Shown here piece after piece: positions 1-12,560 of a DNA stretch of 12,560 nt. The stretch comes from Candidatus Nanohalobium sp. (GTDB taxonomy: Archaea > Nanohalarchaeota > Nanosalinia > Nanosalinales > Nanosalinaceae), in assembly GCA_042216335.1 (NCBI GenBank), contig JBDGTY010000009.1, positions 1 to 12,560 of the forward strand, given 5' to 3'. How positions within the stretch are numbered: position 1 is the first letter of the stretch; the number at the start of each line of letters is the position of its first letter. A program made the position numbers and the translations under genes. The notes beneath the pieces were generated by a model. It ran no database searches. It saw only the letters and a program-made list of their open reading frames with translations, and had not been told where the DNA came from.

Positions 1-17
1 ACGACAGTTGTGCCGGA

Positions 18-71
18 GGTCGAAAACTCGAGCGAGTTTTCTCGACCCGCAGCAAATATGACAGTATTTGC
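18..71. repeat. Two inverted repeats directly upstream of the tRNA
   Basis: GGTCGAAAACTC-GAGC-GAGTTTTCTCGACC (18-47) and GCAAATA-TGACAG-TATTTGC (52-71). Confidence 0.75.
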
Positions 72-279
72 CGGAGTGACAGAGTCTGGCTAATTGTGCC
101 GGTCTTGAGAACCTCAAATTCTGCCTTGTGCAGAATGGGGGAAGGAGAAGATCTCTGATCTTCGAAACGCACCTTCTCAAATGAGAAGCGTGCTCAGACA
201 GGTTTCCGAAAGGAAAGCTGATACAAGACAACCGGTGAGGCATACCCGCCTCTCCTGGGTTCAAATCCCAGCTCCGGCG
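70..279 (+). tRNA. tRNA-Ser(UGA), intron-containing (exons 70-109 and 230-279; CCA not encoded)
   Basis: Acceptor stem GCCGGAG (70-76)/CTCCGGC (272-278), discriminator G279. D stem ACA/TGT. Anticodon stem CCGGT (99-103)/ACCGG (231-235), loop CT-TGA-G|A. Long variable arm GAGGC/GCCTC (class II). T arm CTGGG-TTCAAAT-CCCAG (255-271). Confidence 0.95.
110..229 (+). other. 120-nt tRNA intron at canonical position 37/38 with a relaxed bulge-helix-bulge motif
   Basis: CTTG (104-107) pairs with intron CAAG (224-227), flanked by AG|A (108-110) and AC|A (228-230). Cutting after the second nucleotide of each restores a 7-nt anticodon loop. The intron-side closing helix is not formed (A111 opposite A223). 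Confidence 0.88.
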
Positions 280-280
280 T

Positions 281-703
281 TTATTCTTCGTTCTCACCGG
301 TTTTTCCTGGTATTTCTAGTTCTCCGCCTTCTATGTCCATCTTGAGCCTTTCTTCTGCGGCCGTGGCTATTAGTATGTCTCTCTGTACGTGGTAGTCTTC
401 CCGGTAAAGCATCGAGAAGTAGCTGATAAGTGCGTAGAGTGCGAGTATGACAGTGAATCCTAGGTATGATGCTATCTTGTTGATGATGGATAGGTTGACG
501 TTGAATGTTGCGGCGACGGATGTTATTATGGATGCGTATAGTAGCACTCTAACTGCCTGTTGTGCGATCTTTGCGTTTCTGTATCGATTGAGTGAGTCAT
601 TGTATCTTTCGAACTGGTGGTCTTCTAGACGCATCTCGAGGAAGGCGCGTATCTTGCTGTCCGCCCTTCCAAGTGGTGTGAGCTTGAAGAGTTTCTTTAT
701 CAT
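281..703 (-). CDS. Small hypothetical membrane protein (140 aa, two hydrophobic segments)
   Basis: ATG ORF with hydrophobic stretches VLLYASIITSVAATF and IASYLGFTVILALYALISYFSMLY, an acidic C-tail, and a well-placed upstream TATA/BRE. No family recognised. Confidence 0.8.
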   Translation of the reverse strand: MIKKLFKLTPLGRADSKIRAFLEMRLEDHQFERYNDSLNRYRNAKIAQQAVRVLLYASIITSVAATFNVNLSIINKIASYLGFTVILALYALISYFSMLYREDYHVQRDILIATAAEERLKMDIEGGELEIPGKTGENEE

Positions 704-723
704 AAGGTTTTCTGGACAGCGGA

Positions 724-741
724 GCTTAATAGATGTTTTCG
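724..741 (-). promoter_or_regulatory. Probable archaeal BRE + TATA box for the 281-703 gene
   Basis: The minus strand reads CGAAAACATCTATTAAG. TATTAA (731-726) lies 23-28 nt upstream of the ATG at 703, as expected for a leaderless transcript. Confidence 0.55.
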
Positions 742-774
742 AGATTCAAAAACTTCAGGTTGTAATATTGCTTC

Positions 775-1926
775 ATGAACATTGAGAGCTGGAAGTTCTC
801 CCTCAGCCTTGTCGCGGCAGTCTTTATCGGAAGTCTGGCAGGTTCAGCTTTTATCTACCAGGATATGAACAGTGAGATCGATTCTCTGAAGGATAAGGTG
901 GCGAACAGCACCAGTACAAGACTCGTGTACGTGAACGGGACGGATGGAAGCCTCCATCCAGTCTTTGAGAAAGTTGATCAATCCGTCGTCTACATCGAGG
1001 CGCGTGGCGACAAGTCGACACAGGGCTCGGGCTTCGTTTACAGCCAGAAAGGATACATAATAACGAATGAGCACGTCGTGGATGATGCCGACACCGTGAC
1101 AGTCAGCTTCACCGACGGCACCACGAGAAAAGCAGAGATAGTTGGAACAGACCCATATACAGACCTGGCAGTCCTGAAAGTCGACAAGGCAGGCCTTAAA
1201 CCGCTTGAACTCGCGAACTCGTCGCAGGTAGTGACCGGGCAAAGGGCTATTGCGGTAAGTAACCCATATGGGTTCAGAGGCTCTCTTACAGCAGGTTTCG
1301 TATCACAGGTAGGTAGAAGCCTGCCAGTGCAGGAAGTTGGTCTAGAAGGCTTCAGGATAAGAAACGTTATTCAGACAGACGCCGCCATCAATCCCGGAAG
1401 CTCCGGTAGCCCGCTGTTAAATAAGTACGGAGAAGTTATAGGCGTCAATACAGCTATCGAAACCCAGACCGGAGGTTTCTCAGGTATAGGATTCGCTGTA
1501 CCTTCAAACACTGTAAAAAGAGTAGTTCCAGACATCATAAAATCAGGGGATGCCAAGCATCCATGGATAGGAGTAACAGGAAGAGATATGAACCGGAAAC
1601 TAGCGAAGATAATGAATACTACACAGGAAACCGGCTTCCTTGTTATGAACGTCTCCAGGAACAGCCCAGCCAGCAGAGCAGGTCTCCAAGGCGGAAACAG
1701 GACCGTCAAGATAAACGGGCTGCGTTACATTATCGGAGGAGACATCATAGTAGGGATGGGTGGAGAAAGGATGCGCGACATTGAAGACATTAAGAACTTC
1801 CTTGCCACAGAAGCAGATGTTGGGGAAACAGTCAAAATCACAGTACAGAGAAACGGAAAAGAAGTGACTATGCCGTTGACGCTGGCAGACCGGCCTGACG
1901 ACAGGCTACCGCCAGCACAGAGATGA
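775..1926 (+). CDS. htrA: HtrA/DegP-family (S1C) serine protease with N-terminal membrane anchor and one PDZ domain
   Basis: Motifs QGSGFV, ITNEHVV (His), TDLAVL (Asp), IQTDAAINPGSSGSPL (Ser), GEVIGVNTAI and GIGFAVP. PDZ motifs HPWIGV, SPASRAGL and GDII. Confidence 0.95.
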   Translation: MNIESWKFSLSLVAAVFIGSLAGSAFIYQDMNSEIDSLKDKVANSTSTRLVYVNGTDGSLHPVFEKVDQSVVYIEARGDKSTQGSGFVYSQKGYIITNEHVVDDADTVTVSFTDGTTRKAEIVGTDPYTDLAVLKVDKAGLKPLELANSSQVVTGQRAIAVSNPYGFRGSLTAGFVSQVGRSLPVQEVGLEGFRIRNVIQTDAAINPGSSGSPLLNKYGEVIGVNTAIETQTGGFSGIGFAVPSNTVKRVVPDIIKSGDAKHPWIGVTGRDMNRKLAKIMNTTQETGFLVMNVSRNSPASRAGLQGGNRTVKINGLRYIIGGDIIVGMGGERMRDIEDIKNFLATEADVGETVKITVQRNGKEVTMPLTLADRPDDRLPPAQR

Positions 1927-1933
1927 ATGAGTT

Positions 1934-2920
1934 TCAGGGTTTATAGCGGAGGATCGCGGCGATACCCCCAAAGTTTTCGAGTCTTTCACCGGCTTCATGG
2001 TCGGTGTGAACAACCTGTACATCTCCCCCCTGCTGCTCGACTTCCTCGACTATCTCAGGGCTTTCCCTCTGCTTCTCCTGCGTTATGAGCAGCTTCTTCA
2101 CTGCTCCCATCTCCGCCAGTTCCTCTACCGGCTCGCCGTACTCCGCTGCGCCGTCCTTTTCAAGAGTTTCAAGGAAGTCTTCGACAGCAGAGGATTCTTC
2201 AGAGATCCTGGAGTTCTCCACCACTCTATCAAGCGCTCCCCTCTTAATCGCCTCATTCAGGCCAGTTTTTCCTATGACAGAGGTGTCCTGCATCAGGACT
2301 TTGTCCTTTACTTCGTCGCTGAGCATGTTTTCCAGTCTCTGCTTTGTGAAGCCCGGGCCTCCGATGACGATCTTGTCGACTTTCTCGGCCGTCCTCTCCA
2401 CGTAGTTTGAAACGTCCGTGAAGAATGAGTCGCCGGTGTCCTGGTCCTTGTAGAGCTTGCCGGGGATGTTCTGGTCGAGCTTCGAAAGGTCCTGGATGCC
2501 TGACTCCTCGACAAGGTAGAAGTCAGCCTCGCCTTTCTGTATCAGGCAGAAAAGCACGGTGTAACTTCTCTTTTCTTCGGCTTCCTGGAGATCTTCCCAC
2601 TCCGTATCCGTAAAGTCCTTGTACAGCTTGAATCTTTTTCCGGGCTCAAGGTTGAAGGTATGATATCCGAGTTCGATGTCTTCGGCTCCTTCTGTGATCT
2701 CTCCTGTAAGTCTGAGGCGGTCTTCCTGGTACTCTATCTTCTCTACCTCCAGTGTCAGGGTGCAGGTCTTCTTCTCTCTGCCGTCGAGCTTGGTTCTCTG
2801 AGTCTTCGCCCTGACCTCGTCACCCTGTTTGATAATCTCCTTCAGGTGCCAGAGGTCGTCCTCGTTCTCTATCTCTATCTGGGCAAAACCTTCCTCCCTG
2901 TCCTGGTTTAGAATCTTCAT
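1934..2920 (-). CDS. pelA: Pelota (aPelota/Dom34) ribosome-rescue / mRNA surveillance factor
   Basis: N-terminal MKI...EDDLWHL..II..GD.V, RLRLTG.I, G.HT.N; central GPGF; C-terminal eRF1-like AGERLENFGGIAAILRY. Start placed at ATG 2920 from the family N-terminus and TATA spacing. Confidence 0.95.
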   Translation of the reverse strand: MKILNQDREEGFAQIEIENEDDLWHLKEIIKQGDEVRAKTQRTKLDGREKKTCTLTLEVEKIEYQEDRLRLTGEITEGAEDIELGYHTFNLEPGKRFKLYKDFTDTEWEDLQEAEEKRSYTVLFCLIQKGEADFYLVEESGIQDLSKLDQNIPGKLYKDQDTGDSFFTDVSNYVERTAEKVDKIVIGGPGFTKQRLENMLSDEVKDKVLMQDTSVIGKTGLNEAIKRGALDRVVENSRISEESSAVEDFLETLEKDGAAEYGEPVEELAEMGAVKKLLITQEKQRESPEIVEEVEQQGGDVQVVHTDHEAGERLENFGGIAAILRYKP

Positions 2921-2940
2921 ATCCCGAGGTTTGTGTGGAG

Positions 2941-2950
2941 AAAATAAAAA
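2941..2950. promoter_or_regulatory. AT-rich element, probably a TATA box for pelota and possibly shared with the divergent 2972 gene
   Basis: AAAATAAAAA reads TTTTTATTTT on the minus strand, 21-30 nt upstream of the pelota ATG (2920) and 22-31 nt upstream of ATG 2972. Confidence 0.5.
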
Positions 2951-2971
2951 CATGCTTGAGAAAACCGGGTT

Positions 2972-4120
2972 ATGGACGATGCATTTCCGATCGTAGTAGT
3001 GCTAGGTCTCGCAGTCTTCGGCATGTTCTGGATAGGAAGCCAGGCCTCAGGTAACGGTTTCAGCCTGGGACTGGGCGGTAACCAGCCGGACAGCATGATG
3101 CTTCTATCTTCAAATCCGGGAACGGTCGGGGAGTCTAACGAGGACTTCAGGACAGTCAACTTCGGAACTTTCACGGTCGGAGAAATCAGAGGTGACGTTC
3201 AGGCATACACCGCTGAGAGAACGCAGATATCGAACGGCTTGATCGGAGGAAAAAGCATAACTATAGAGTACAATGCTACGCAGCCAGGTCAGGGCCAGGT
3301 CAGCTTCGAGGTACTCGGAAGGCGGAGCAAGGGAGAGATTTTCGTGAAAGTGAACGGCAGAGAGGTGTTCAGCGCGGCTACGGTTTCCGGTGCGACACCA
3401 GTCATCAATATAAGCCAGAACTACTTCAACTCCGGCATGAACAGGATAGTGATAGGGACAGAACAGTCCAGCATCTTCCAGAAAGCAGTCTACACACTTG
3501 AGGACATCGAGGTGACGGTCGAGGACAGGAAGTTCCACGCCTACAGATCTTACTTCCAGATGTACGACCACGAACTCGACAGCTTCCGGCCCAGCAACCT
3601 CACCTTCAGGATACCGATTGACCAGTCCATCCCGCAGGAACCCCTCCAGGTAGAGGTCAACGGAGAACAGGTATTCAGCCAGAGAATAGGCAGATCAACA
3701 CAGGAAGTCACCATCACGCCACAGAACTCCGACCTCAAAACAGGATACAACACCATCGAGTTCAGCACAGACGGCGAATCCAAATACACAGTCAAAAACG
3801 CCGAACTCCAGATAAGATACTCAGTCAACGTACAGCCCGCCCGGAAAAACCTCGACTTCCAGCTAAGCCAGAACCGCCTCAACTACGTCGAAAGAGACAA
3901 CACGAAAGAGACTCTCAGCTTCCAGTACCAGAGAAGCACCACAACAGCACCGATACAGATCCGGTTGAACGACGCATACTACCAGATCGACCCAGAAAAC
4001 GGCCAGAACACAGTAGAACTCGGAGATACCGCATTCCAGCAGGAAAACACCCTGACAGTCTCCAGCAACCAAACCTTCACACTACAAAACCTCCAGATAG
4101 TTTCTGAAAGGCAGGAATAG
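2972..4120 (+). CDS. Membrane-anchored extracellular protein with 2-3 repeated beta-sandwich modules (382 aa)
   Basis: N-terminal hydrophobic helix. Internal repeats IFVKVNGREVFS...SGMNRIVI and LQVEVNGEQVFS...TGYNTIEF, plus a degenerate IQIRLND...QQENTLTV. Several N-x-S/T sequons. Confidence 0.88.
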   Translation: MDDAFPIVVVLGLAVFGMFWIGSQASGNGFSLGLGGNQPDSMMLLSSNPGTVGESNEDFRTVNFGTFTVGEIRGDVQAYTAERTQISNGLIGGKSITIEYNATQPGQGQVSFEVLGRRSKGEIFVKVNGREVFSAATVSGATPVINISQNYFNSGMNRIVIGTEQSSIFQKAVYTLEDIEVTVEDRKFHAYRSYFQMYDHELDSFRPSNLTFRIPIDQSIPQEPLQVEVNGEQVFSQRIGRSTQEVTITPQNSDLKTGYNTIEFSTDGESKYTVKNAELQIRYSVNVQPARKNLDFQLSQNRLNYVERDNTKETLSFQYQRSTTTAPIQIRLNDAYYQIDPENGQNTVELGDTAFQQENTLTVSSNQTFTLQNLQIVSERQE

Positions 4121-6481
4121 ATGTCTGAAAATAGTGAAGTAAAGAAAGGATTTGAGAAAAAACTTATACAATATCTAATCGGGTCAGCAATACCTTATGC
4201 AGGGGATGCTTACTTGTGGTGGAAATATGACGATATTGGAGCCTTAAAAGTAATAGTAGGCGGACTTATCCCGGGTCCATTCATAACCGATCTAGTCTAT
4301 TTTCTAGGAGGGAGGGAAGAAGATGAGGAAGAAAGTCCAAATCAAAACAGTGAGAACTACAGAGAAAACGGTCAGAGTGTAGCTACGGACGGCGGACAGA
4401 ATAGTGGAAATCAGGGAAACAGCAATCGTACTGTAGGGAACAACGGTGTTGGTATAGATCAAGGGGTTTACGAAGATCTTTCGATGGATAATCCGAAAGG
4501 CAGGCTCAACTCATTGACACAGAAGATTCCTTTCGGTAAGAAGGCGTTACTTGTGGTGGCTGCGGTAGTTGCTGCGGTCGGCGGTTTTTTCATGGGCGGA
4601 CCTATACTGACTTTGGGCGGTTTGGCCGCAGTTGGCAGTGTTTACGGTGTTTACAGTAAGTGGGGTGTTAAAGGTCTTATGTTCGGTGCTCTGCCTGTTT
4701 TGGCCTTAGTAGGCTTGGTTGCGGTCACAGGTGTCGGTGCTGGTTATGGCGGACTGATCAATGACATGTTTGGAAGTTATGCTACTGGTTTGGATGATCT
4801 TGGTGGGGAGATAAGTTATCAGGCTGGGCAGGCGTGGAAGACTATTACGTGTTTCGGGAATGCTGGTTGTATCCGTGAGTGGCAGTTGAATCAGACTCGT
4901 CAGCCGGGTTCTGAGGATACTGGTGAGACGTATCGTCTGCGTGTGCAAAATTTAATGGTTTCTGGGCAGGATAACGGGGTTGATATTGCCTATCAGAGGA
5001 AGGATGCTCCTATCCCTGTCTATTTTTTGCTGAAGAATACTCGCCACGGTTTGAAGGGGATCAAGGCTAAGGATGTGAAGTACCGGCTTAAAGTACGTAA
5101 TGACCAGTTAGTGAGTCAGAACGATGTTTTGTGCAGTACTAAAGAGAAGCCTGATGCAAACAGCAGAGGATGGATTCCTTTGAACAAGTTCCCTGAGGGT
5201 TCGAGTATACCGGACGAATTTGACAGGAATACTCTTCTTCCTGGTGAGCCAGTGAGTCCTTTGAATTATAACGGGGAGAATCAGCTTACCTTGAAGGAGT
5301 GCGGCTTGCTTCAACCGGGGCCGAGCGAGTCAGTTACCTTCGTTTTGCAGATAAAGTACCAGTACTCTTCGCAGTCGACACTCCCGATCACTGCGATGAG
5401 CCGGGATCACAGGAGAGCTGAAAACATCCCTATAGAGTTCAAGAGGTCGAAGACCGCCGATACACCAGTTGAGACGTTCATTCAGGCCCGTAAACCTATA
5501 CTTTTCCAGGACTTTGAGTCGGGTAGACGCCCTATACCTTTCCAGACACGTATAGGGGTCAGTACCGACGACAGGAACATCAGGTACCGGATTGATGTGA
5601 ACAAGTTCAAGATGCAGGACTCAAGCAAGACGACTCATCTCAAGAGTAAAGGATCTTGCAGTGATTTGAATTACCTTAGCAACAACAAGTACGAGTTCTC
5701 AGAGGAAGTTAAAGACAGAATTCAGAGGATGCAGCTGAAAGGTGGTTGGTGGTCGAAGAGGAATCCTCCTCCACCTGCGTCATGCACATTTACTCTGGCC
5801 AACAACGGGAAAGGCATCAGCCCTACCGGGGAAACACTGACGATGAGCGCCGAGGTAGAGTATACTGTGAAGCAGGAGCCGGAGCCGAAGACATTCAAGA
5901 TCTCCAACACCATCTGCACCACGAGGAACTGTCCAAGAGTCGTCCCGCTCAAACCGGAAGAACTAACCCAGGACATAGCCACAAGCAAGCTTGGAACCGA
6001 ACTCACGCTGGGAGAAAAAGGCTACTGGACAAAGGAATACGCACACTGCGGAGACCATCAGGACGCCCAGTCAGGGTGCTCTGTCATATCAAGTTTCAAG
6101 CTGAAGGACAGGACCGGGGAGGCCTCCAGCAGCACAACCATCCGAAACGGCGATCTTGCACTCAAACTGGACAGAGGCCTCAAAGGTAAAGGAAACAACT
6201 TTTACACATGCTACGTCAGGAACAAACTTGCAGCCAGCAAGTTCAGAGTTATCAGCATCAGCGAATCCCAACTGGAGCGTGTATGGAGCAAGCCCGATAG
6301 GGCCCTGAACTATTCGAAAGGAAGCGGTAACGATGGATGGGTAGAAACCGACATCACACGTTCAGACCCACAACCTGATAACGGATGTAAAATCCCCGGC
6401 AAGAAGACATCTTCGAGTGGCGGAGGTAGCAGTTCCAGCAGCGGAACCAGCTCGCAAACCACTAACATGTACCAGTACTGA
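4121..6481 (+). CDS. Large membrane protein (786 aa): N-terminal module, Gly-rich TM bundle, ectodomain with 12 Cys and Ig-like domains, Ser/Gly tail
   Basis: Long ORF starting immediately after the upstream TAG. About three Gly/Ala/Val-rich helices at ~4545-4745. Ectodomain motifs align with the downstream lipoproteins. Confidence 0.9.
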   Translation: MSENSEVKKGFEKKLIQYLIGSAIPYAGDAYLWWKYDDIGALKVIVGGLIPGPFITDLVYFLGGREEDEEESPNQNSENYRENGQSVATDGGQNSGNQGNSNRTVGNNGVGIDQGVYEDLSMDNPKGRLNSLTQKIPFGKKALLVVAAVVAAVGGFFMGGPILTLGGLAAVGSVYGVYSKWGVKGLMFGALPVLALVGLVAVTGVGAGYGGLINDMFGSYATGLDDLGGEISYQAGQAWKTITCFGNAGCIREWQLNQTRQPGSEDTGETYRLRVQNLMVSGQDNGVDIAYQRKDAPIPVYFLLKNTRHGLKGIKAKDVKYRLKVRNDQLVSQNDVLCSTKEKPDANSRGWIPLNKFPEGSSIPDEFDRNTLLPGEPVSPLNYNGENQLTLKECGLLQPGPSESVTFVLQIKYQYSSQSTLPITAMSRDHRRAENIPIEFKRSKTADTPVETFIQARKPILFQDFESGRRPIPFQTRIGVSTDDRNIRYRIDVNKFKMQDSSKTTHLKSKGSCSDLNYLSNNKYEFSEEVKDRIQRMQLKGGWWSKRNPPPPASCTFTLANNGKGISPTGETLTMSAEVEYTVKQEPEPKTFKISNTICTTRNCPRVVPLKPEELTQDIATSKLGTELTLGEKGYWTKEYAHCGDHQDAQSGCSVISSFKLKDRTGEASSSTTIRNGDLALKLDRGLKGKGNNFYTCYVRNKLAASKFRVISISESQLERVWSKPDRALNYSKGSGNDGWVETDITRSDPQPDNGCKIPGKKTSSSGGGSSSSSGTSSQTTNMYQY

Positions 6482-6483
6482 TT

Positions 6484-7080
6484 TCATGCCGTACTGAAGA
6501 TCAGGTAGAGCGAGCGGGAGCTGAGTGACAGGCCGAGCACGAGCACTGTTCTCACGAAAAGGTCTGCAGCCTCGTCTTCAAGGAATCTGTAGGAGTAGAG
6601 GAGGGGCAGCCCCACCAGAACGGTTTTGGATATAAGGAGCGCCGGGTAGTCTCCGAATGTTTTCATCATTTCTGACATGAAAGGGTTCGCCTCATCCAGT
6701 CCTGTTATTCCTGCTGTGATGAGGGCATCCGCTACATGGGTCGAGAACGAGTTGAGGTATTCTCTGCCCGGGGTTTTCCGGAACGGTGTTGTAATCGTCG
6801 CAGCCATGAAGACTGCCAGCATCGAGTAGAGATAGGGATAGGAAAGCAGCAGGATCAGAGCCGAAAGCAGGATGCTCAGGACGGCCTGAAAATCCGGGAG
6901 ATATCCCTCCAGTGCGTGAAGAAGGTAAATCAGAGAGGTTATCGACACAGCAGTAATGATAAACTGCATCACGGGACTCAGGAATCCCAGTTCCAGGGAG
7001 GTGAGTGCTGCTGTCATAGAGATGAGGACGAGGTTGAGATCAGTGGTTTGCTGTGTAAATCTTTTAATCAGGGCCTGCAT
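6484..7080 (-). CDS. Polytopic membrane protein with a DUF5658-like (D..T...EANP) C-terminal half; start uncertain (7080 or 7017)
   Basis: About six hydrophobic segments. Motif HVADALITAGITGLDEANPFM followed by ALLISK. Family assignment is from recalled motifs, not a search. Confidence 0.75.
   Translation of the reverse strand: MQALIKRFTQQTTDLNLVLISMTAALTSLELGFLSPVMQFIITAVSITSLIYLLHALEGYLPDFQAVLSILLSALILLLSYPYLYSMLAVFMAATITTPFRKTPGREYLNSFSTHVADALITAGITGLDEANPFMSEMMKTFGDYPALLISKTVLVGLPLLYSYRFLEDEAADLFVRTVLVLGLSLSSRSLYLIFSTA
7056..7068 (+). promoter_or_regulatory. Probable TATA box of the lipoprotein operon
   Basis: TTTTAAT at 7062-7068 lies 22-28 nt upstream of ATG 7090 and is preceded by GTAAA. 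Confidence 0.55.
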
Positions 7081-7089
7081 ACTGTATGT

Positions 7090-7962
7090 ATGGATCGTTG
7101 GAAAGTAATAGGTTTGCTTCTGCTGGCTGTCCTGGCTTCAGGATGCGGTGAGTCTCAGGGTCAGGGCATCGTTGTCAGCGAGTTGAGTGTTGAGCCGTCG
7201 AGCATCCGGGCTGGGAGGCCTGTCTCGGTGAACATGCAGGTTGTCAACGCCGGAATGTTGAAGGGTTCGATAAACGTCGGAGATCCTTCTACCGGGGATG
7301 CCATACTGACGAATCACTGTCCGGATTACTTCAGCGTACAGGATTTCAGCGCTTCTTCGACACGGGACAGCGGAAGCCAGAAGACCTACACTGTCGGCAA
7401 AGGAGAAGTCGCAAGGTTTTTCTGGCGCCTGAACCAGGATAAACCAGATGAAATTCCTCTGCAGGGCTATACATGCAATATGAAGTTCGAGGTACCTTTC
7501 AACTATTCTGTGAGAGCGTACAAGCAGATCCAGGTGAAGAGGAGTCGGAACGTGTCCGGTACTCCGAAGCTTGCTACGGATATCTCTCCCGGACCGCTCT
7601 CAATCGATATGAAGATAATCGGATCGACTGCAGCCCGGAAGAACACTATCATCAGGGGTGACAACGCCTCGCTCTACCTGACGGCGTACAACCAGGAAAA
7701 GGATGAGAGCGCGTACCAGGGACTGATCAACATAAACGATATCAGGATCAACGGCGGCGGAGCAATCAGTGTCGGGGAGAGCTGCGGTAAGAGGGATTCG
7801 GTAACGCTTGTATCCGGGAACCAGGAGATCTACCGGTGTGACATCGATTACAGCGAGTTGACTGCTCCGAGCGTCCGTGGAGAGATAGAGGTGCAGATCG
7901 ACTACACTTTCGTCAAACAGGTAGGAGAGAGAAAGGTGAAGGTGAAGTACGTTGGACAGTAG
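7090..7962 (+). CDS. Lipoprotein 1 (290 aa), two Ig/CARDB-like domains
   Basis: Signal peptide MDRWKVIGLLLLAVLASG-C with a lipobox. CARDB-like start EPSSIRAGRPVSVNMQVVNAG. Four further Cys. True start is ATG 7090 rather than 6736. Confidence 0.88.
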   Translation: MDRWKVIGLLLLAVLASGCGESQGQGIVVSELSVEPSSIRAGRPVSVNMQVVNAGMLKGSINVGDPSTGDAILTNHCPDYFSVQDFSASSTRDSGSQKTYTVGKGEVARFFWRLNQDKPDEIPLQGYTCNMKFEVPFNYSVRAYKQIQVKRSRNVSGTPKLATDISPGPLSIDMKIIGSTAARKNTIIRGDNASLYLTAYNQEKDESAYQGLININDIRINGGGAISVGESCGKRDSVTLVSGNQEIYRCDIDYSELTAPSVRGEIEVQIDYTFVKQVGERKVKVKYVGQ

Positions 7963-8734
7963 ACTCGTAGTGCTGCTGGTGATTACGGTGGCCGCCTCAG
8001 GATGCGGGCAGAAGTCTCAGGGCACCGGAGTGAAGATCCAGAGCCTCTCAGCCTCCGACACCTCCCTGAACCCGGGTCAGGAGTTCAGTGTCGAGGCCCA
8101 GATCGTCAACTATAATCAGGCACCGACCACGGTAAAAGCCGGAAACATCAGGCTTTACAACCTGGGACAGCTGAAGAAGGTCAGCGGCAGCAAGGGCTGC
8201 AACCCGGACAGCATCGGAGCCTCGAAGGAGAACTTCAACCCACGTATGGTGTGCACCTGGGTACTGAAGGCGCCGGGAAAACAGTTCGTCAAGGGTTTCA
8301 AGTCGAAGCCTCTCTCCTTCAAGATGGGTCTGGAGTACAGTAGCACCCTGGAGAACCGGGAACCACTGAAGATCGACTTCCAGAAGATGAGCAAGATAAG
8401 CCAGAGCAACGAGATAAAGAGAACTTTCAGCAACGGTGACATCACGGCCACGGTCACCGCACAGACACCTGTAGCACTGGGCAACCCTCAGAACCTTGAA
8501 ATCAAGGTGAAGAACACGGGCCCCGGTTACGTGGTTGGGAAGTACAGGGTCGATTTCTCACACGAGAACCTTGTGAACTGTCCCTCCAAAGGGAACAGGA
8601 AGCCTATACAGGGCACTGCAAGGCTGAGCTGTACGCTGAACGCGGACTCGGCCGGCAGCCGGAACCTGTTTATCTCCATATCTTATAAATACGAGAAAAC
8701 TCCAAACGTCGACATAAAGGTCGTGAACAACTAA
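7952..8734 (+). CDS. Lipoprotein 2 (260 aa), paralogue of lipoprotein 1; TTG start
   Basis: Signal peptide MDSRLVVLLVITVAASG-C. TTG at 7952 is preceded by SD-like GGTGA (7941-7945) and overlaps the previous gene by 11 nt. Four further Cys. Confidence 0.88.
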   Translation: MDSRLVVLLVITVAASGCGQKSQGTGVKIQSLSASDTSLNPGQEFSVEAQIVNYNQAPTTVKAGNIRLYNLGQLKKVSGSKGCNPDSIGASKENFNPRMVCTWVLKAPGKQFVKGFKSKPLSFKMGLEYSSTLENREPLKIDFQKMSKISQSNEIKRTFSNGDITATVTAQTPVALGNPQNLEIKVKNTGPGYVVGKYRVDFSHENLVNCPSKGNRKPIQGTARLSCTLNADSAGSRNLFISISYKYEKTPNVDIKVVNN

Positions 8735-9768
8735 TGCTAGGAGAAAAAAGACAGGTAATACTGCTTTTCGCCGTCGCAGTCATCGCCTCAGGATGCGGAA
8801 CGACAACAACACAGAACCAGAACACAGGAAGTTCAGTGATCTCTGTCAACACCTTTGAAGCCATTCCAAATCCTGTTCCGGCAGGACAGACCATGACACT
8901 GAACATGGAACTGGAGAACACGGGAGACGCACCTGCGAGACAGGTAGCGGCCAGGGTATTCGGACCGGCATGGCTGAACTCACAGTACAGCAAGGCGGAG
9001 AGAACCGAGACTTTCGGAACACTCAGAGCAAAGTCGGAGAGCAGTCCTTCAGTACCCAAGACCGCGACCTGGAGCTTCAGCAACACGCCAGGCCTCAAGG
9101 AGAACCGGGAGGCGACATACACGATATTCTCAAAGATATTCTACAGCTACGAGACAACCGCCACAGCAGAGTTCAAGCTGGTATCAGGAAGCAGGTACAG
9201 AGAGCAGGGCTACACACAGACCGACGCCTCGGTCGAAAACTCTCAGGCACCGATCCAGCTTGACATCAGAGGCACCACGCCCAAAATCTACTACGACAGC
9301 GACGGAGGAGATGTCACATCCGAGATATGCGTAGTCGTCAACAACGAAGGAGAAGGAACAGCATTCACAGGCGGAGAACAATCGGGAAGAGCCTACGAGA
9401 TGGGGAACGCGAAGAAAGACACCGTCAAACTGACGATCAGCGCAAGAGGAGACATCCAGTTCCAGAGAGCCGATAAAAACGGGAACTTCAGGAACCCATT
9501 GACAGTTCAAAACCTGAAATTGATCAATGGACAGGAAGGCTACCAGTGCTTCACGATGCGGGCAAGCAGCCTCACAAACTCCGAAACCAACGTCAACGTC
9601 AACCTCGAAGCCCAGTACAACTACAAGAAAGAAACGCAGACACAGGTAACAGTAGAAGGCCGCAGAGGAGCATCAAACACAGACACAGAAACTACAGACT
9701 CCTCAGACAGCGGGGACAGTTCAGGCGGCAACAGCGGAGCAGCGGACAGTGCTCCCGGCGTAAATTAA
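8734..9768 (+). CDS. Lipoprotein 3 (344 aa), paralogue with an acidic Ser/Gly-rich C-tail
   Basis: Signal peptide MLGEKRQVILLFAVAVIASG-C. TAATG stop/start overlap. Motifs PNPVPAGQTMTLNMELENTG, FYSYET and QYNYK. Confidence 0.9.
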   Translation: MLGEKRQVILLFAVAVIASGCGTTTTQNQNTGSSVISVNTFEAIPNPVPAGQTMTLNMELENTGDAPARQVAARVFGPAWLNSQYSKAERTETFGTLRAKSESSPSVPKTATWSFSNTPGLKENREATYTIFSKIFYSYETTATAEFKLVSGSRYREQGYTQTDASVENSQAPIQLDIRGTTPKIYYDSDGGDVTSEICVVVNNEGEGTAFTGGEQSGRAYEMGNAKKDTVKLTISARGDIQFQRADKNGNFRNPLTVQNLKLINGQEGYQCFTMRASSLTNSETNVNVNLEAQYNYKKETQTQVTVEGRRGASNTDTETTDSSDSGDSSGGNSGAADSAPGVN

Positions 9769-11574
9769 GTGGGGAGAATGAAGAAGCCTGTCTTTCTTTT
9801 TCTGGTTCTTATTCTCTCAACCGGATTGATTTCAGGAAGCGTGGAAAGAGAGGTAGAGTTAAATCCAGGATGGAATACTATTGGAGTCGATATCGAAGAT
9901 GTAAGTTTCAGTGAAGACATCAGGCCCAAATGTAACTTTGGAGGGTATAATCTCAGGTTGAGTGAGGGAGTAGATGAGGGAGATGTGGCACAGGAAAACA
10001 GGTATTTTGTCTGGAGCCAGGAAGGAGGGGACTGGAGTCATCCCGACCGTTTACAGCCCATGAAAGGATACAGTGTATATCTTGATCAGGAAAAATCATG
10101 CAGTTTCAGTCTGGAAGGCGAAACTTCAGGCATCGAAGAAATAGAACTGGAGAAGGGATGGAACCTCATCAACCTGAATTCGAACGAAGATATGGAGGAC
10201 GTATGGAACCAGTGTGGAGATAAACTGAACTGGTACAACATGGAACTGAAAGGAGAAGACGATCCTGTTATCGACGAATCTTCCAGATATTATTTCTGGA
10301 TTAATAATGGATATAACTGGGAGAATCCAATGAAGAAGGATTACTCGATAGATAAGGCTGATGCAGCCTACGTAAATGCCGAGAGCAGTTGCACGGTGAA
10401 TCTAGGAACATCAGATACCTCGGGTGAAAGTTCTTCTACAGAGGACGTCCAGAGATTTAAGTTGACGAGGAACAGCGATGGGCTTTATTCTATCTCTGGT
10501 AAGAACGGTTATATCGTTCAGAGCCCGGACGGAGCTTTCGGTTTCGGAGATGATGGCAGGAAGAAGATAACGTTGGTGAACAAGCAAAGGAGTAATCCTA
10601 CCGAGGAATACGTAACGCTGGAGAAGCCCAACTTCGATCTGAAAGTTGTTAGAAATCCTCCTATCGCTGAAACAGGTGAAGAAGTCAAGGTAAAGATTAC
10701 CGATTTCTCGGGAGGTAGTTCAACCGACCCTTATAATGGCATCAGAGCCGGGGGTAAAGAGTTCAACAGCGATGGCGATATGGAGACAAGTAGTACCGAT
10801 GAAAGTCCTGGGCCTGAAAAACTCATGGTTAGTTCTTCCGAGGCTGGCCCGGTCAACGTCTATGCGACCTTGACTGACAACACGCCAGGAGACGGAGTTC
10901 AGACCACGAAAAAGACCAGAGTTCATTTCTCAGATGGGTTCTTGAAGGATTACAGGGATGAAACTGTTTCTGGCCGTGCTATCAGCTTCACCAAGAAGCA
11001 GAATGAGATTACAGGAGATTGGACGATCCTACATCAGGAGAAGGGGAGTAAGGATTACCAGATACAGGATTGGAACTCTGACGTATACGATGGTTCTGAC
11101 AGGACTCCGTGGATAGAAAGAAGGCTTTTAGGTGGAAGATACAGAGGGGTTCTAAGTATTAAGGCGAACCACAAGGACAGGGACAGAGTAGTTAACGACA
11201 TCAGAGTTGAGAGGATAAAGGATGTGGGAAAAATCGCCAAGATAATGTTCAGAGTCTTCGCCAATACACAGAGTTCAGATGCGAAACTCTACCTAACTGA
11301 AGGAGACGAATTAAAGAGTGCTCCGTTGCGTGATGGAGTATATAGGCTGATCTACGATGAGGGCATAAGAGGCTACAGCCTTTACCGTTCAAATAGCCTG
11401 AGTTCGAAGGGAAGTAAGGTGAAAAGCTTCAGTAACTTCAATGTAGAGGCTTACGGTTTTGAAGTCGATACCAGTGTCAAAGGAGTTAAGAGAGGTCAAA
11501 ATGAGCTATACCTCGACTGGATAATGACTCAGTCACTGTGCAATAACCGGGACTACCCCGGCAAAACATGTTAA
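9769..11574 (+). CDS. Secreted protein (~600 aa) with two N-terminal 'L..GWN.I' repeats; start GTG 9769 or ATG 9778
   Basis: Sec-type signal MKKPVFLFLVLILSTGLISG. Repeats start at 9853 and 10141, each with two Cys. Two more Cys at the extreme C-terminus. No C-terminal TM. Confidence 0.85.
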   Translation: MGRMKKPVFLFLVLILSTGLISGSVEREVELNPGWNTIGVDIEDVSFSEDIRPKCNFGGYNLRLSEGVDEGDVAQENRYFVWSQEGGDWSHPDRLQPMKGYSVYLDQEKSCSFSLEGETSGIEEIELEKGWNLINLNSNEDMEDVWNQCGDKLNWYNMELKGEDDPVIDESSRYYFWINNGYNWENPMKKDYSIDKADAAYVNAESSCTVNLGTSDTSGESSSTEDVQRFKLTRNSDGLYSISGKNGYIVQSPDGAFGFGDDGRKKITLVNKQRSNPTEEYVTLEKPNFDLKVVRNPPIAETGEEVKVKITDFSGGSSTDPYNGIRAGGKEFNSDGDMETSSTDESPGPEKLMVSSSEAGPVNVYATLTDNTPGDGVQTTKKTRVHFSDGFLKDYRDETVSGRAISFTKKQNEITGDWTILHQEKGSKDYQIQDWNSDVYDGSDRTPWIERRLLGGRYRGVLSIKANHKDRDRVVNDIRVERIKDVGKIAKIMFRVFANTQSSDAKLYLTEGDELKSAPLRDGVYRLIYDEGIRGYSLYRSNSLSSKGSKVKSFSNFNVEAYGFEVDTSVKGVKRGQNELYLDWIMTQSLCNNRDYPGKTC

Positions 11575-11600
11575 AGTGAAGAAAGAGAGGAAAAAGGAAT
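11575..11600 (-). terminator. Pyrimidine/oligo-T tract after the stop codon of the rightmost gene
   Basis: The minus strand reads ATTCCTTTTTCCTCTCTTTCTTCACT directly after TGA, resembling archaeal U-rich terminators. Confidence 0.5.
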
Positions 11601-12560
11601 TCACAATTCCCTGATGAGGATGGCTGCTGTCACGATAGCGGCAACCAGGACTGCGAGTGCTGCTTTGGCTGCGGTGCCTGATGCCTGGATGTTTTCCAGT
11701 GCCTGAGTGAACTGGCCTGTGATTCCGTTGAATGCGTTGGAATCACTCTGAATCGCTTCTTCTATTTTCTTTCCTATGACCAGTTCTACTGTGTGGCTGT
11801 CGGTTGCGTTTTTGCCGACGGCTGTTGCTGTGATCTGGACGTTTCCTTCTTTCTTGAATGGGATTCCTGCGTACATGTAGCTGGTTTCCGTCTGTCCTGG
11901 TGCTACTGTCAGGTTCTTTGGCTTGATGCTGATCCACTGTGGTCCTTCGTAGGCGAGTTCGTAGGTGTTCTCTCTCGTTCCTGTGTTCTTAACGTTGACT
12001 TCGTACACTACTGACCTGTTTTCTCCTGCGCTTGCTACCTCCGGCACTGCGTTGACTGATACGTCCCAGCAGTTCTCTACTGTTACTGTGGCTGTCTTGG
12101 ATTTGACCGGTTCTCCGTAGGTCGATGCCGTGGCGGTTACCTTAACGTTGTAGCTTCCGGTCTTGAGACGTGTCGCGTCGACCAGGACCTCTACTGTCTC
12201 GGATTCCCCTGCGTCGACCTGGACTTCCTTCTGCTGGAGCGTGCCTCTCCCTGTTTTGAGGGCGAATGTCTCGTCTGTCTCCCCTGTGTTTTCGATCACT
12301 GCCTCGACTTCCGCTCTCTCGGTCTCACATGCAGTGACTGATGGGTTCTGGAAGCTGATCTTCATGTTGTTGCCGTTATAGACCTGGAGCTGTGCTGAGG
12401 CCGATGAGCTGCTTCTGCCCTCAGCCTTAATGTTGATCGTTCTTGTTCCAAGTTGCTCTGGCGTTACCTCAAGCGTTACTGTCTTTGATGATTCTCCATC
12501 CACTGTAACCGTGTCGTCGAACTTTCCCAGGTTAGTGGAGAGAGTGAATTCGTCTTCCTT
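11601..12560 (-). CDS. 3' part of a surface protein with tandem Ig-like (CARDB/NPCBM-associated, COG1470-like) repeats and a C-terminal TM anchor; 5' end outside the window
   Basis: The frame is open to the window edge (KEDEFTLSTNLGKFDDTVTVDGES...). Repeats IENTGETDETFAL...VDAGESETV and VKNTGTRENTYEL...VAPGQTET. C-terminal ALAVLVAAIVTAAILIREL. Confidence 0.88.
   Translation of the reverse strand, partial: KEDEFTLSTNLGKFDDTVTVDGESSKTVTLEVTPEQLGTRTINIKAEGRSSSSASAQLQVYNGNNMKISFQNPSVTACETERAEVEAVIENTGETDETFALKTGRGTLQQKEVQVDAGESETVEVLVDATRLKTGSYNVKVTATASTYGEPVKSKTATVTVENCWDVSVNAVPEVASAGENRSVVYEVNVKNTGTRENTYELAYEGPQWISIKPKNLTVAPGQTETSYMYAGIPFKKEGNVQITATAVGKNATDSHTVELVIGKKIEEAIQSDSNAFNGITGQFTQALENIQASGTAAKAALAVLVAAIVTAAILIREL

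Follow-up and report, generated by a model that had tools for sequence, protein, structure and literature searches.

A conserved cluster of paralogous two-Ig surface proteins as a candidate envelope scaffold in Nanohaloarchaeota and Aenigmatarchaeota

What might four related surface proteins that match no characterised family build at the envelope of a DPANN archaeon? The question is raised by positions 4,121 to 9,768 of a 12,560-nucleotide (nt) stretch of Candidatus Nanohalobium sp. (assembly GCA_042216335.1, contig JBDGTY010000009.1, positions 1 to 12,560 of the forward strand; hereafter the window), where an earlier note, made from the sequence alone, had proposed a family of two-domain immunoglobulin (Ig)-like surface proteins, one embedded in the membrane and three lipid-anchored. 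We refer to the four as A (A786; 4121..6481, plus strand), B (B290; 7090..7962, plus), C (C260; 7952..8734, plus) and D (D344; 8734..9768, plus), and to their neighbours as U (U382), M (M198) and E (E601). All four open reading frames (ORFs) are present as the earlier note described, but they are not contiguous: a minus-strand gene that it overlooked, M198, lies between A and B. The 786-amino-acid (aa) protein A is multi-pass and carries the two-domain module followed by a Cys-rich C-terminal extension. B (290 aa, two conserved Cys pairs), C (260 aa, TTG start) and D (344 aa, with a low-complexity tail after about residue 312) are Sec lipoproteins with the module; for B we used the ATG at 7090, the mechanical ORF list beginning the gene at 6736.

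We compared the four proteins with one another by sequence and by profile. In pairwise BLAST the links among B, C and D came chiefly from the N-terminal regions, and A had no significant match. HHalign with first, shallow profiles of 22–25 orthologues gave probabilities of 95.4% for B–C, 96.1% for B–D, 97.2% for C–D and 87.5% for A–D, with no direct detection of A–B (2.0%) or A–C (1.4%). With a 133-row alignment of D the values were 99.1% for B–D, 99.0% for C–D and 96.1% for A–D, against 0.2–0.5% for reversed-profile controls, and with 61 rows for A the A–D match stood at 98.4% over 257 columns. A-type proteins from a second phylum, described below, matched A at 95.9%, D at 98.4%, B at 95.3% and C at 94.1% (reversed control, 17.9%). 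We conclude that A786, B290, C260 and D344 are one family of diverged paralogues, as had been proposed, with profile matches to D of 98–99%. Of the motifs quoted in support of that proposal, 13 were looked up, and all of them occur in the proteins named. The reported 8 identities in 50 positions between A and the third lipoprotein are at chance level (200 of 200 shuffles reach at least eight identities somewhere, and 5% reach the same BLOSUM score), but the register of that alignment is correct by the deeper profile alignment.

The sequences also bear out three lipid-anchored members. An ASGC lipobox behind a Sec-type signal ends at Cys19 in B, Cys18 in C and Cys21 in D, and the lipobox Cys is present in 100%, 100% and 98% of aligned orthologues, respectively, the values for B and C being partly a product of construction because rows were cut at the lipobox pattern, which missed 2 rows. 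Judged by these features, B, C and D are Sec-type lipoproteins that would be lipidated at the lipobox Cys. Other Cys residues number 12, 4, 4 and 2 in A, B, C and D, the even counts from which disulfides had been suggested, and their columns are 93–100% conserved in B (44 orthologues) and C (45 orthologues). The overlaps between the lipoprotein genes, 11 nt for B/C and 1 nt for C/D, are kept across the family loci (24/24 and 22/25, respectively).

No characterised family accounts for the whole module in Pfam, NCBIfam or structure searches, in line with the earlier note. Pfam and NCBIfam gave no family above cut-off for A–D, and 36 and 55 relatives searched against family libraries gave merely weak Ig-type matches or matches to appended domains. 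CARDB (PF07705) matched none of the four window proteins at E 0.1 and matched 13/36 and 6/55 relatives weakly (best E 7e-6); a PDB sequence search reached E 0.079 at best. Doubled modules or long Cys-rich C-terminal extensions occur in the members P0146, P0150, P0144 and L046:11903-14230; we suggest that D-type subunits can display variable cargo domains.

AlphaFold2 models of mature D (predicted local distance difference test score (pLDDT) 93.6, predicted template-modelling score (pTM) 0.87) and of the A ectodomain (residues 236–611; pLDDT 90.3, pTM 0.86) have an identical order of strands and helices, an agreement that supports the two Ig-like halves proposed earlier. The D model is nearly all β, with long strands at 106–131 and 264–288; the corresponding A strands are 167–192 and 336–360. 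The first half of D matches the second by HHalign (93.3%; reversed control, 3.0%), and profiles and models together give each subunit two duplicated CARDB-like Ig halves. Single Ig domains align across the ranges 13..289 of D and 36..360 of A while covering only about 100–116 residues. Because the matches are spread in this way, the final strand of the chain closes domain 1 in the models, which puts both chain ends in the membrane-proximal domain. The halves of the duplicated Ig would swap their final strands and give a rigid rod. The best VIA-align matches were generic and confined to a single domain (Z up to 11.1, root-mean-square deviation (rmsd) 2.0, 96 aligned residues), and Foldseek against the PDB and viral models gave template-modelling (TM) scores by query of 0.27 or less, with no structure spanning both domains. 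Domain 2, searched only as part of the whole model, matched white spot syndrome virus VP37 (Z 8.1) and cohesins (Z 6.7–7.1). The interlocked two-Ig architecture has no whole-length solved match in these PDB searches. Look-alikes in the Atlas (feature score 0.93–0.94, TM 0.77–0.78) form clusters of archaeal proteins, most often from Aenigmatarchaeota, Woesearchaeota and Nanobdellota. They are a lead to a wider range and no census: those rich in Woesearchaeota and Nanobdellota leave a wider DPANN distribution open, and clusters labelled Methanobacteriota may be nanohaloarchaea filed there by NCBI.

Modelling of B with C by ESMFold2 gave a score of 0.63, compared with 0.00 for the best of three controls. 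That mark is reached by 116/157 solved pairs and 2/215 mismatched pairs, counts that are approximate as our own alignments were used. The B+C runs share at least 85% of their contacts, with partner pLDDT of at least 86. The B side of the interface comprises one face of the long strand (124–130) with 136–148 and 241–247, and the C side comprises residues 50–56 and 97–109 of domain 1; B is predicted to bind C by laying its ribbon and second domain on domain 1 of C. Conservation is high at several contact residues (B Q128 97%, Q130 90% and S148 97%; C N53 95% and G55 91%). A search of solved structures found no complex like B+C. The hetero-oligomeric envelope structure proposed in the earlier note has thereby gained one predicted hetero-pair, whereas the rest of that assembly goes beyond the models. 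We consider it probable that the A–D proteins form some hetero-complex, and find this likelier than any one function for it.

The cluster is widespread in two phyla. The D profile matched 67/70 Nanohaloarchaeota genomes, including 28/28 of high quality; some other Ig protein may lie behind a few of the matches, which are weak at E about 1e-5. The profile also matched 59/61 genomes of the second phylum, in which the lipoproteins have four named close homologues, all from Aenigmarchaeota/Aenigmatarchaeota. In all, 126/131 searched genomes have a match. The order pelota, 382-aa gene (U), A and lipoproteins is kept at loci in both phyla, the co-conservation by which the earlier note had proposed to check the cluster. 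Within the window's family, U-A-M-B-C-D is complete in 21/25 loci (the other four being two contig-end cuts, one locus with B hidden by the ORF filter and one without M), and further loci are complete in 14/20 cases (five contig-end cuts, one of them also without M, and one rearrangement). The second-phylum sample comprised 24 loci, 20 from the 59 genomes (mostly strong matches on long contigs) and 4 others; an A-type gene stands upstream of two to four lipoproteins in 14/24, and U is present in 10/24, pelota in 9/24 and a DUF63 gene in 6/24. FastTree analysis of 140 sequences, a subset of the family loci, recovered the Nanohaloarchaeota clades A (1.0), B (0.99) and C (0.98) and a D-type clade spanning both phyla, in which D groups with the distal second-phylum lipoproteins (0.97); deeper branches lacked resolution. 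D is the paralogue kept most widely, with frequent tandem duplication. At E 0.001 or better, 3,425 representatives were retrieved, a number that overstates the family because long CARDB-repeat proteins are included (6/150 among those listed). The A ectodomain alone as query found no locus in the genome-contig scan, and neither viral contigs nor plasmid records yielded a relative. A search of sequencing runs listed no RNA data set as holding a match.

Several loci depart from the common layout. L050, L044 and L045 are reduced to U, DUF63 and D, and U in L045 and L050 starts with a KGA motif resembling a class III (pilin) signal peptide. L115 (G060:C4:8500-26500) is rearranged and partly duplicated: U lies in three short frames, followed by B, C and D, an A of 1157 aa with two module matches, DUF63, and second B- and D-type genes. 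The N-terminal parts of second-phylum A-type proteins (L063, L065, L076, L077 and L079) are highly variable, reach about 570 aa and frequently contain Zn-ribbon-like Cys pairs.

Transcript data exist for a cultured relative (Reva et al. 2023). In the portion available to us (PMC10266531 Supplementary Table S1), SVXNc_1033-1043 of Ca. Nanohalococcus occultus run in the order seen in the family, with release factor (1041) and protease Do (1042) as landmarks. Positional orthologues, assigned by gene order and not by sequence in this one table from one organism, have values in reads per kilobase per million (RPKM) of 1394 for U, 1701 for A, 387 for M, 762 for B, 391 for C and 1709 for D. The same source describes an adjoining operon, SVXNc_1003-31, with TadC and a pilus ATPase. 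Across genomes picked for long contigs, with PIN-KH and very long ATPases dropped beforehand, D has a pilus ATPase of the T2SSE family no more than 30 kb away in 11/13 Nanohaloarchaeota (2.1 expected) and in 10/20 second-phylum genomes (4.0 expected; nominal P 0.003, inflated by kinship), or 21/33 overall, at a distance of 7–29 kb and behind other genes. Pilin-like genes occur within the cluster at L065 and next to it at 8 loci. One neighbour bears the label 'PHP', with which arCOG04881 agrees. Most of the 33 searched genomes have a divergent pilus ATPase (about 750 aa; L080:14694-16949, L044:1-2157 and relatives), whose TadC-like partner has about 710 aa; in Nanohaloarchaeota this is the ATPase near the locus.

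The gene between A and B bears on how the lipoproteins might be modified. M198 (6484..7080, minus strand) encodes a 198-aa membrane protein of a shortened AliA/DUF63 (arCOG02177) type. Two M198 orthologues match PF01889 at E 2e-35 and 5e-48; PF01889 matched neither the window copy nor anything else in the window's genome (96% complete), and a locus-built profile picks out M198 as the sole match in that genome (E 0.0013). The protein keeps H115, D118, T122, E130, K152, G183 and R189 and lacks the N-terminal segment bearing the first conserved Arg. By the parts available of Hong et al. 2025 (PMC12462473), the arCOG02177 alignment is made up of DUF63 proteins, arCOG02177 is AliA, and deletion studies in Haloferax volcanii make AliA important for lipoprotein lipidation; the first Arg, missing from M198, and the C-terminal R189 that it keeps would correspond to that paper's two arginines of the putative pocket. 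For Nanohaloarchaea SG9, supplementary file 10 of the paper gives the series DegQ, PelA, an unassigned gene, arCOG04907, arCOG02177, two unassigned genes and arCOG04400 'S-layer domain', which matches the window's order with arCOG02177 at the position of M198; the passages available do not discuss the cluster. In the same source, AliA neighbours Trm5/Dph5 both in archaeon AR10 and in a Micrarchaeota genome, and no such cluster is shown for either, so the position of M198 may partly reflect old gene order. In relatives the DUF63 gene of the cluster belongs to the AliA family; the window's copy is a shorter form without the region of the first conserved Arg. The shortening and the loss of that segment occur in all four genomes of the window's genus (the window, L021, L022 and L023); the gene may be either an altered lipidation enzyme or a decaying one.

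Comparison with known systems delimits what the module could be. Its first half resembles a CARDB Ig domain (PF1109 CARDB domain: Z 8.5, rmsd 3.8, 108 aligned residues), and domain 1 reaches Z 8.5–9.2 against the solved CARDB domain, although unrelated Ig domains do as well (up to Z 11.1). CARDB/COG1361-type proteins are also secreted archaeal surface proteins, and the labels arCOG04400 and arCOG02079 appear at matching positions in the part of the arCOG assignments available. COG1361 is presumably the name behind the arCOG surface-layer (S-layer) labels, and the Atlas rows use it. Tandem proteins of this type have repeats matching profile positions of about 30–140 only, whereas A–D have two interlocked halves, an N-terminal lipid or multi-pass root and four operon paralogues. 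We rejected an identity as tandem self-contained COG1361-type Ig repeats, since this genome's tandem-Ig proteins match the first half of the D profile only, repeatedly, and S-layer-domain rows of the Atlas reach TM 0.35–0.38 over 121–132 residues. ABC (ATP-binding cassette) solute-binding proteins were likewise set aside, the models being nearly all β with no ABC genes seen in the cluster. Type IV pilus (Tad-like) loci are physical neighbours and sometimes place pilin-like genes within the cluster, but A–D have no class III signal peptide or pilin fold and lie outside the ATPase/TadC operon, and we do not regard them as pilus components. In chaperone-usher pili, Ig domains are completed by a strand from elsewhere and paralogous subunits are assembled in order. 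There the strand comes from another chain; in A–D the exchange would take place within one chain, and the contact residues of the B+C model give no sign of inter-chain strand exchange. Vibrio RbmA matches one domain only (Z 7.4; TM 0.20). Domain III of the fusexins HAP2/Fsx1 is among the best single-domain matches (Z 9.5–10.2, rmsd 2.4–2.6, 99–105 aligned residues) but reflects a generic Ig domain, many unrelated proteins scoring equally well; a fusexin identity fails as only domain III aligns (7p4l residues 349–456 of 477) and the remaining ~150 residues are too small for domains I and II.

Among specific explanations, we tentatively favour one in which interlocked Ig rods, set in order and rooted in the membrane, form a scaffold for a surface appendage or contact site. 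With similar caution, the A–D assembly can be seen as an ancient envelope structure of Nanohaloarchaeota and Aenigmatarchaeota, built of paralogues of one module. B, C and D would leave by Sec, as their sequences indicate, and then be lipidated on the lipobox Cys, presumably by the Ali pathway known from the literature. A would bear its module on the multi-pass membrane root, with the variable N-terminal part probably cytoplasmic. If the B–C type of contact repeats in gene order, A-B-C-D(n), the result could be a curved chain or ring on the outer membrane face, and such a scaffold or collar beneath the S-layer may carry the appendage or contact site. It would probably act together with the type IV pilus system nearby, and A would couple the scaffold to the cytoplasm. 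The proteins are also a candidate part of host-contact machinery, host contact itself being hypothetical. DPANN contact sites include a 21-nm barrel in Microcaldus (PMC11329633) and a cone at the contact site of YN1, whose proteins 'remain unknown' (PMC11420986), as far as the available parts of both papers go. That the locus is the conserved core of a DPANN host-contact machine, with A rooting an A-B-C-D(n) ring or cone of Ig rods, seems to us unlikely.

A number of observations weigh against the scaffold. The B+C interface as a whole is not extra-conserved, shifted patterns scoring as high in 139/265 cases for B and 66/236 for C. Faces mapped onto A, C and D gave no significant signal; the C-type face was least conserved in A and most in D, the trend that an A-to-D chain predicts, but again without significance (293/327 and 37/277). 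B+C is the sole pair modelled, and its controls were unrelated proteins, whereas closely related ones can reach the mark as well. No A stands at 10/24 of the second-phylum loci, and in G028 (93% complete) and G035 (92%) D is the sole full-length member, beside or near U and DUF63, with A, B and C not found. In the part of the table available, the positional orthologues span about a four-fold range of transcript level. The pilus link may be old gene order, given that Trm5, a Dph5-type methylase and the thermosome separate the cluster from the pilus genes; related genomes, moreover, do not count independently, and the 11 Nanohaloarchaeota cases probably go back to a single event.

The same evidence can be read in other ways. 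Lipid-anchored stalks or spacers might hold the S-layer without any link to pili or host contact, which we regard as doubtful. The arCOG labels accord with it, at least in the assignments available: the gene at the position of D is arCOG04400, 'S-layer domain', and in an Aenigmarchaeota locus the matching position has a 276-aa gene assigned to arCOG02079. So do the CARDB matches in 13/36 members, the large Ig surface proteins that are convergent neighbours, and a near-universal presence that suits a basic envelope role. Transcripts are, however, modest (391–1709 RPKM, against 13,131 for the giant surface protein and a maximum of 55,024 among the rows in the part of the table available), this genome's tandem-CARDB proteins match the first half of the profile only, S-layer-domain models reach just TM 0.35–0.38, and a stalk has no obvious need for a multi-pass subunit with a variable N-terminal part.

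That subunit is the basis of a different idea, quite improbable in our view, in which an A oligomer forms a membrane pore and the lipoproteins a conduit passing host molecules. It draws on the 2–11 hydrophobic segments predicted in A across relatives, on the helix-plus-Cys stretch common to A relatives after the last of them, and on the Microcaldus barrel and YN1 cone, envelope structures at contact sites; yet a channel would hardly have a membrane part as poorly conserved as that of A, in both length and sequence; G028 and G035 yielded no A; and no transport ATPase gene was seen in the cluster. Similarly improbable, finally, is a set of independent adhesins or carbohydrate-binding lipoproteins, tandem by duplication and without a fixed complex. 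The Ig fold, the varying D-type copy number and the C-terminal extensions that vary in many members would suit adhesins, but the B+C model passed, and order, overlaps and one copy per paralogue are fixed across the whole family, unlike variable arrays.

The remaining genes frame the cluster. The window reads HtrA, pelota (minus strand), U382, A786, M198 (minus), B290, C260, D344, E601 and a tandem-Ig protein (minus). Pelota (1934..2953, minus; TIGR00111 at E 5e-64, above cut-off), divergent from U382, is the housekeeping anchor of the neighbourhood. U382 (2972..4120, plus) is N-terminally anchored, Cys-free and abuts A; with a U–A gap of −4 to +11 nt in 20/23 loci, it is the constant operon partner of A. 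We ruled it out as a further paralogue (HHalign against A, B, C and D at most 5.2%); its Atlas look-alikes are archaeal only, and BcsB at TM 0.35 is merely a lead. A itself has no lipobox; it has a variable N-terminal part and hydropathy peaks at about 44–62, 135–171 and 181–213, followed by short Cys-linked helices (C244–C250), the module at about 270–595 and the Cys-rich extension. E601 (9769-11574, plus), a secreted protein, occupies a variable slot after D that in relatives holds differing genes or none; in a BLAST comparison within a set of 7 proteins, E601 showed weak similarity (E 5e-4) to the Cys-rich extension at the C-terminus of A. The 3′ part of a tandem-Ig surface protein (11601..12560, minus), with a C-terminal anchor and FixG_C and HYDIN Ig matches, is a conserved, convergent neighbour that may lie outside the system; the window ends at 12560, just before a run of N that breaks its gene (G000:C74).

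A literature search, with subscription journals and bioRxiv supplements beyond its reach, found no description of the cluster, and the parts available of PMC9258230, PMC8204110, PMC11803251 (including its supplement), PMC5498576 and bioRxiv 10.64898/2026.03.08.710431 contain nothing on it. We conclude that the A–D cluster is real, strongly conserved, structurally distinctive and not found in print. It supplies, for two reduced-genome phyla, a defined set of genes behind an envelope complex that as yet has no name, adds the interlocked two-Ig architecture and places the lipidation gene aliA among its likely substrates. The confident models, the predicted interface and the transcribed positional orthologues mean that antibodies, cross-linking and tomogram fitting can test the proposal directly. 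According to the available part of PMC11420986, the proteins that build DPANN contact structures are unknown; if the host-contact-machine reading is true, the cluster would name the proteins of the Microcaldus barrel beneath the S-layer or of the Nanobdellota cone.

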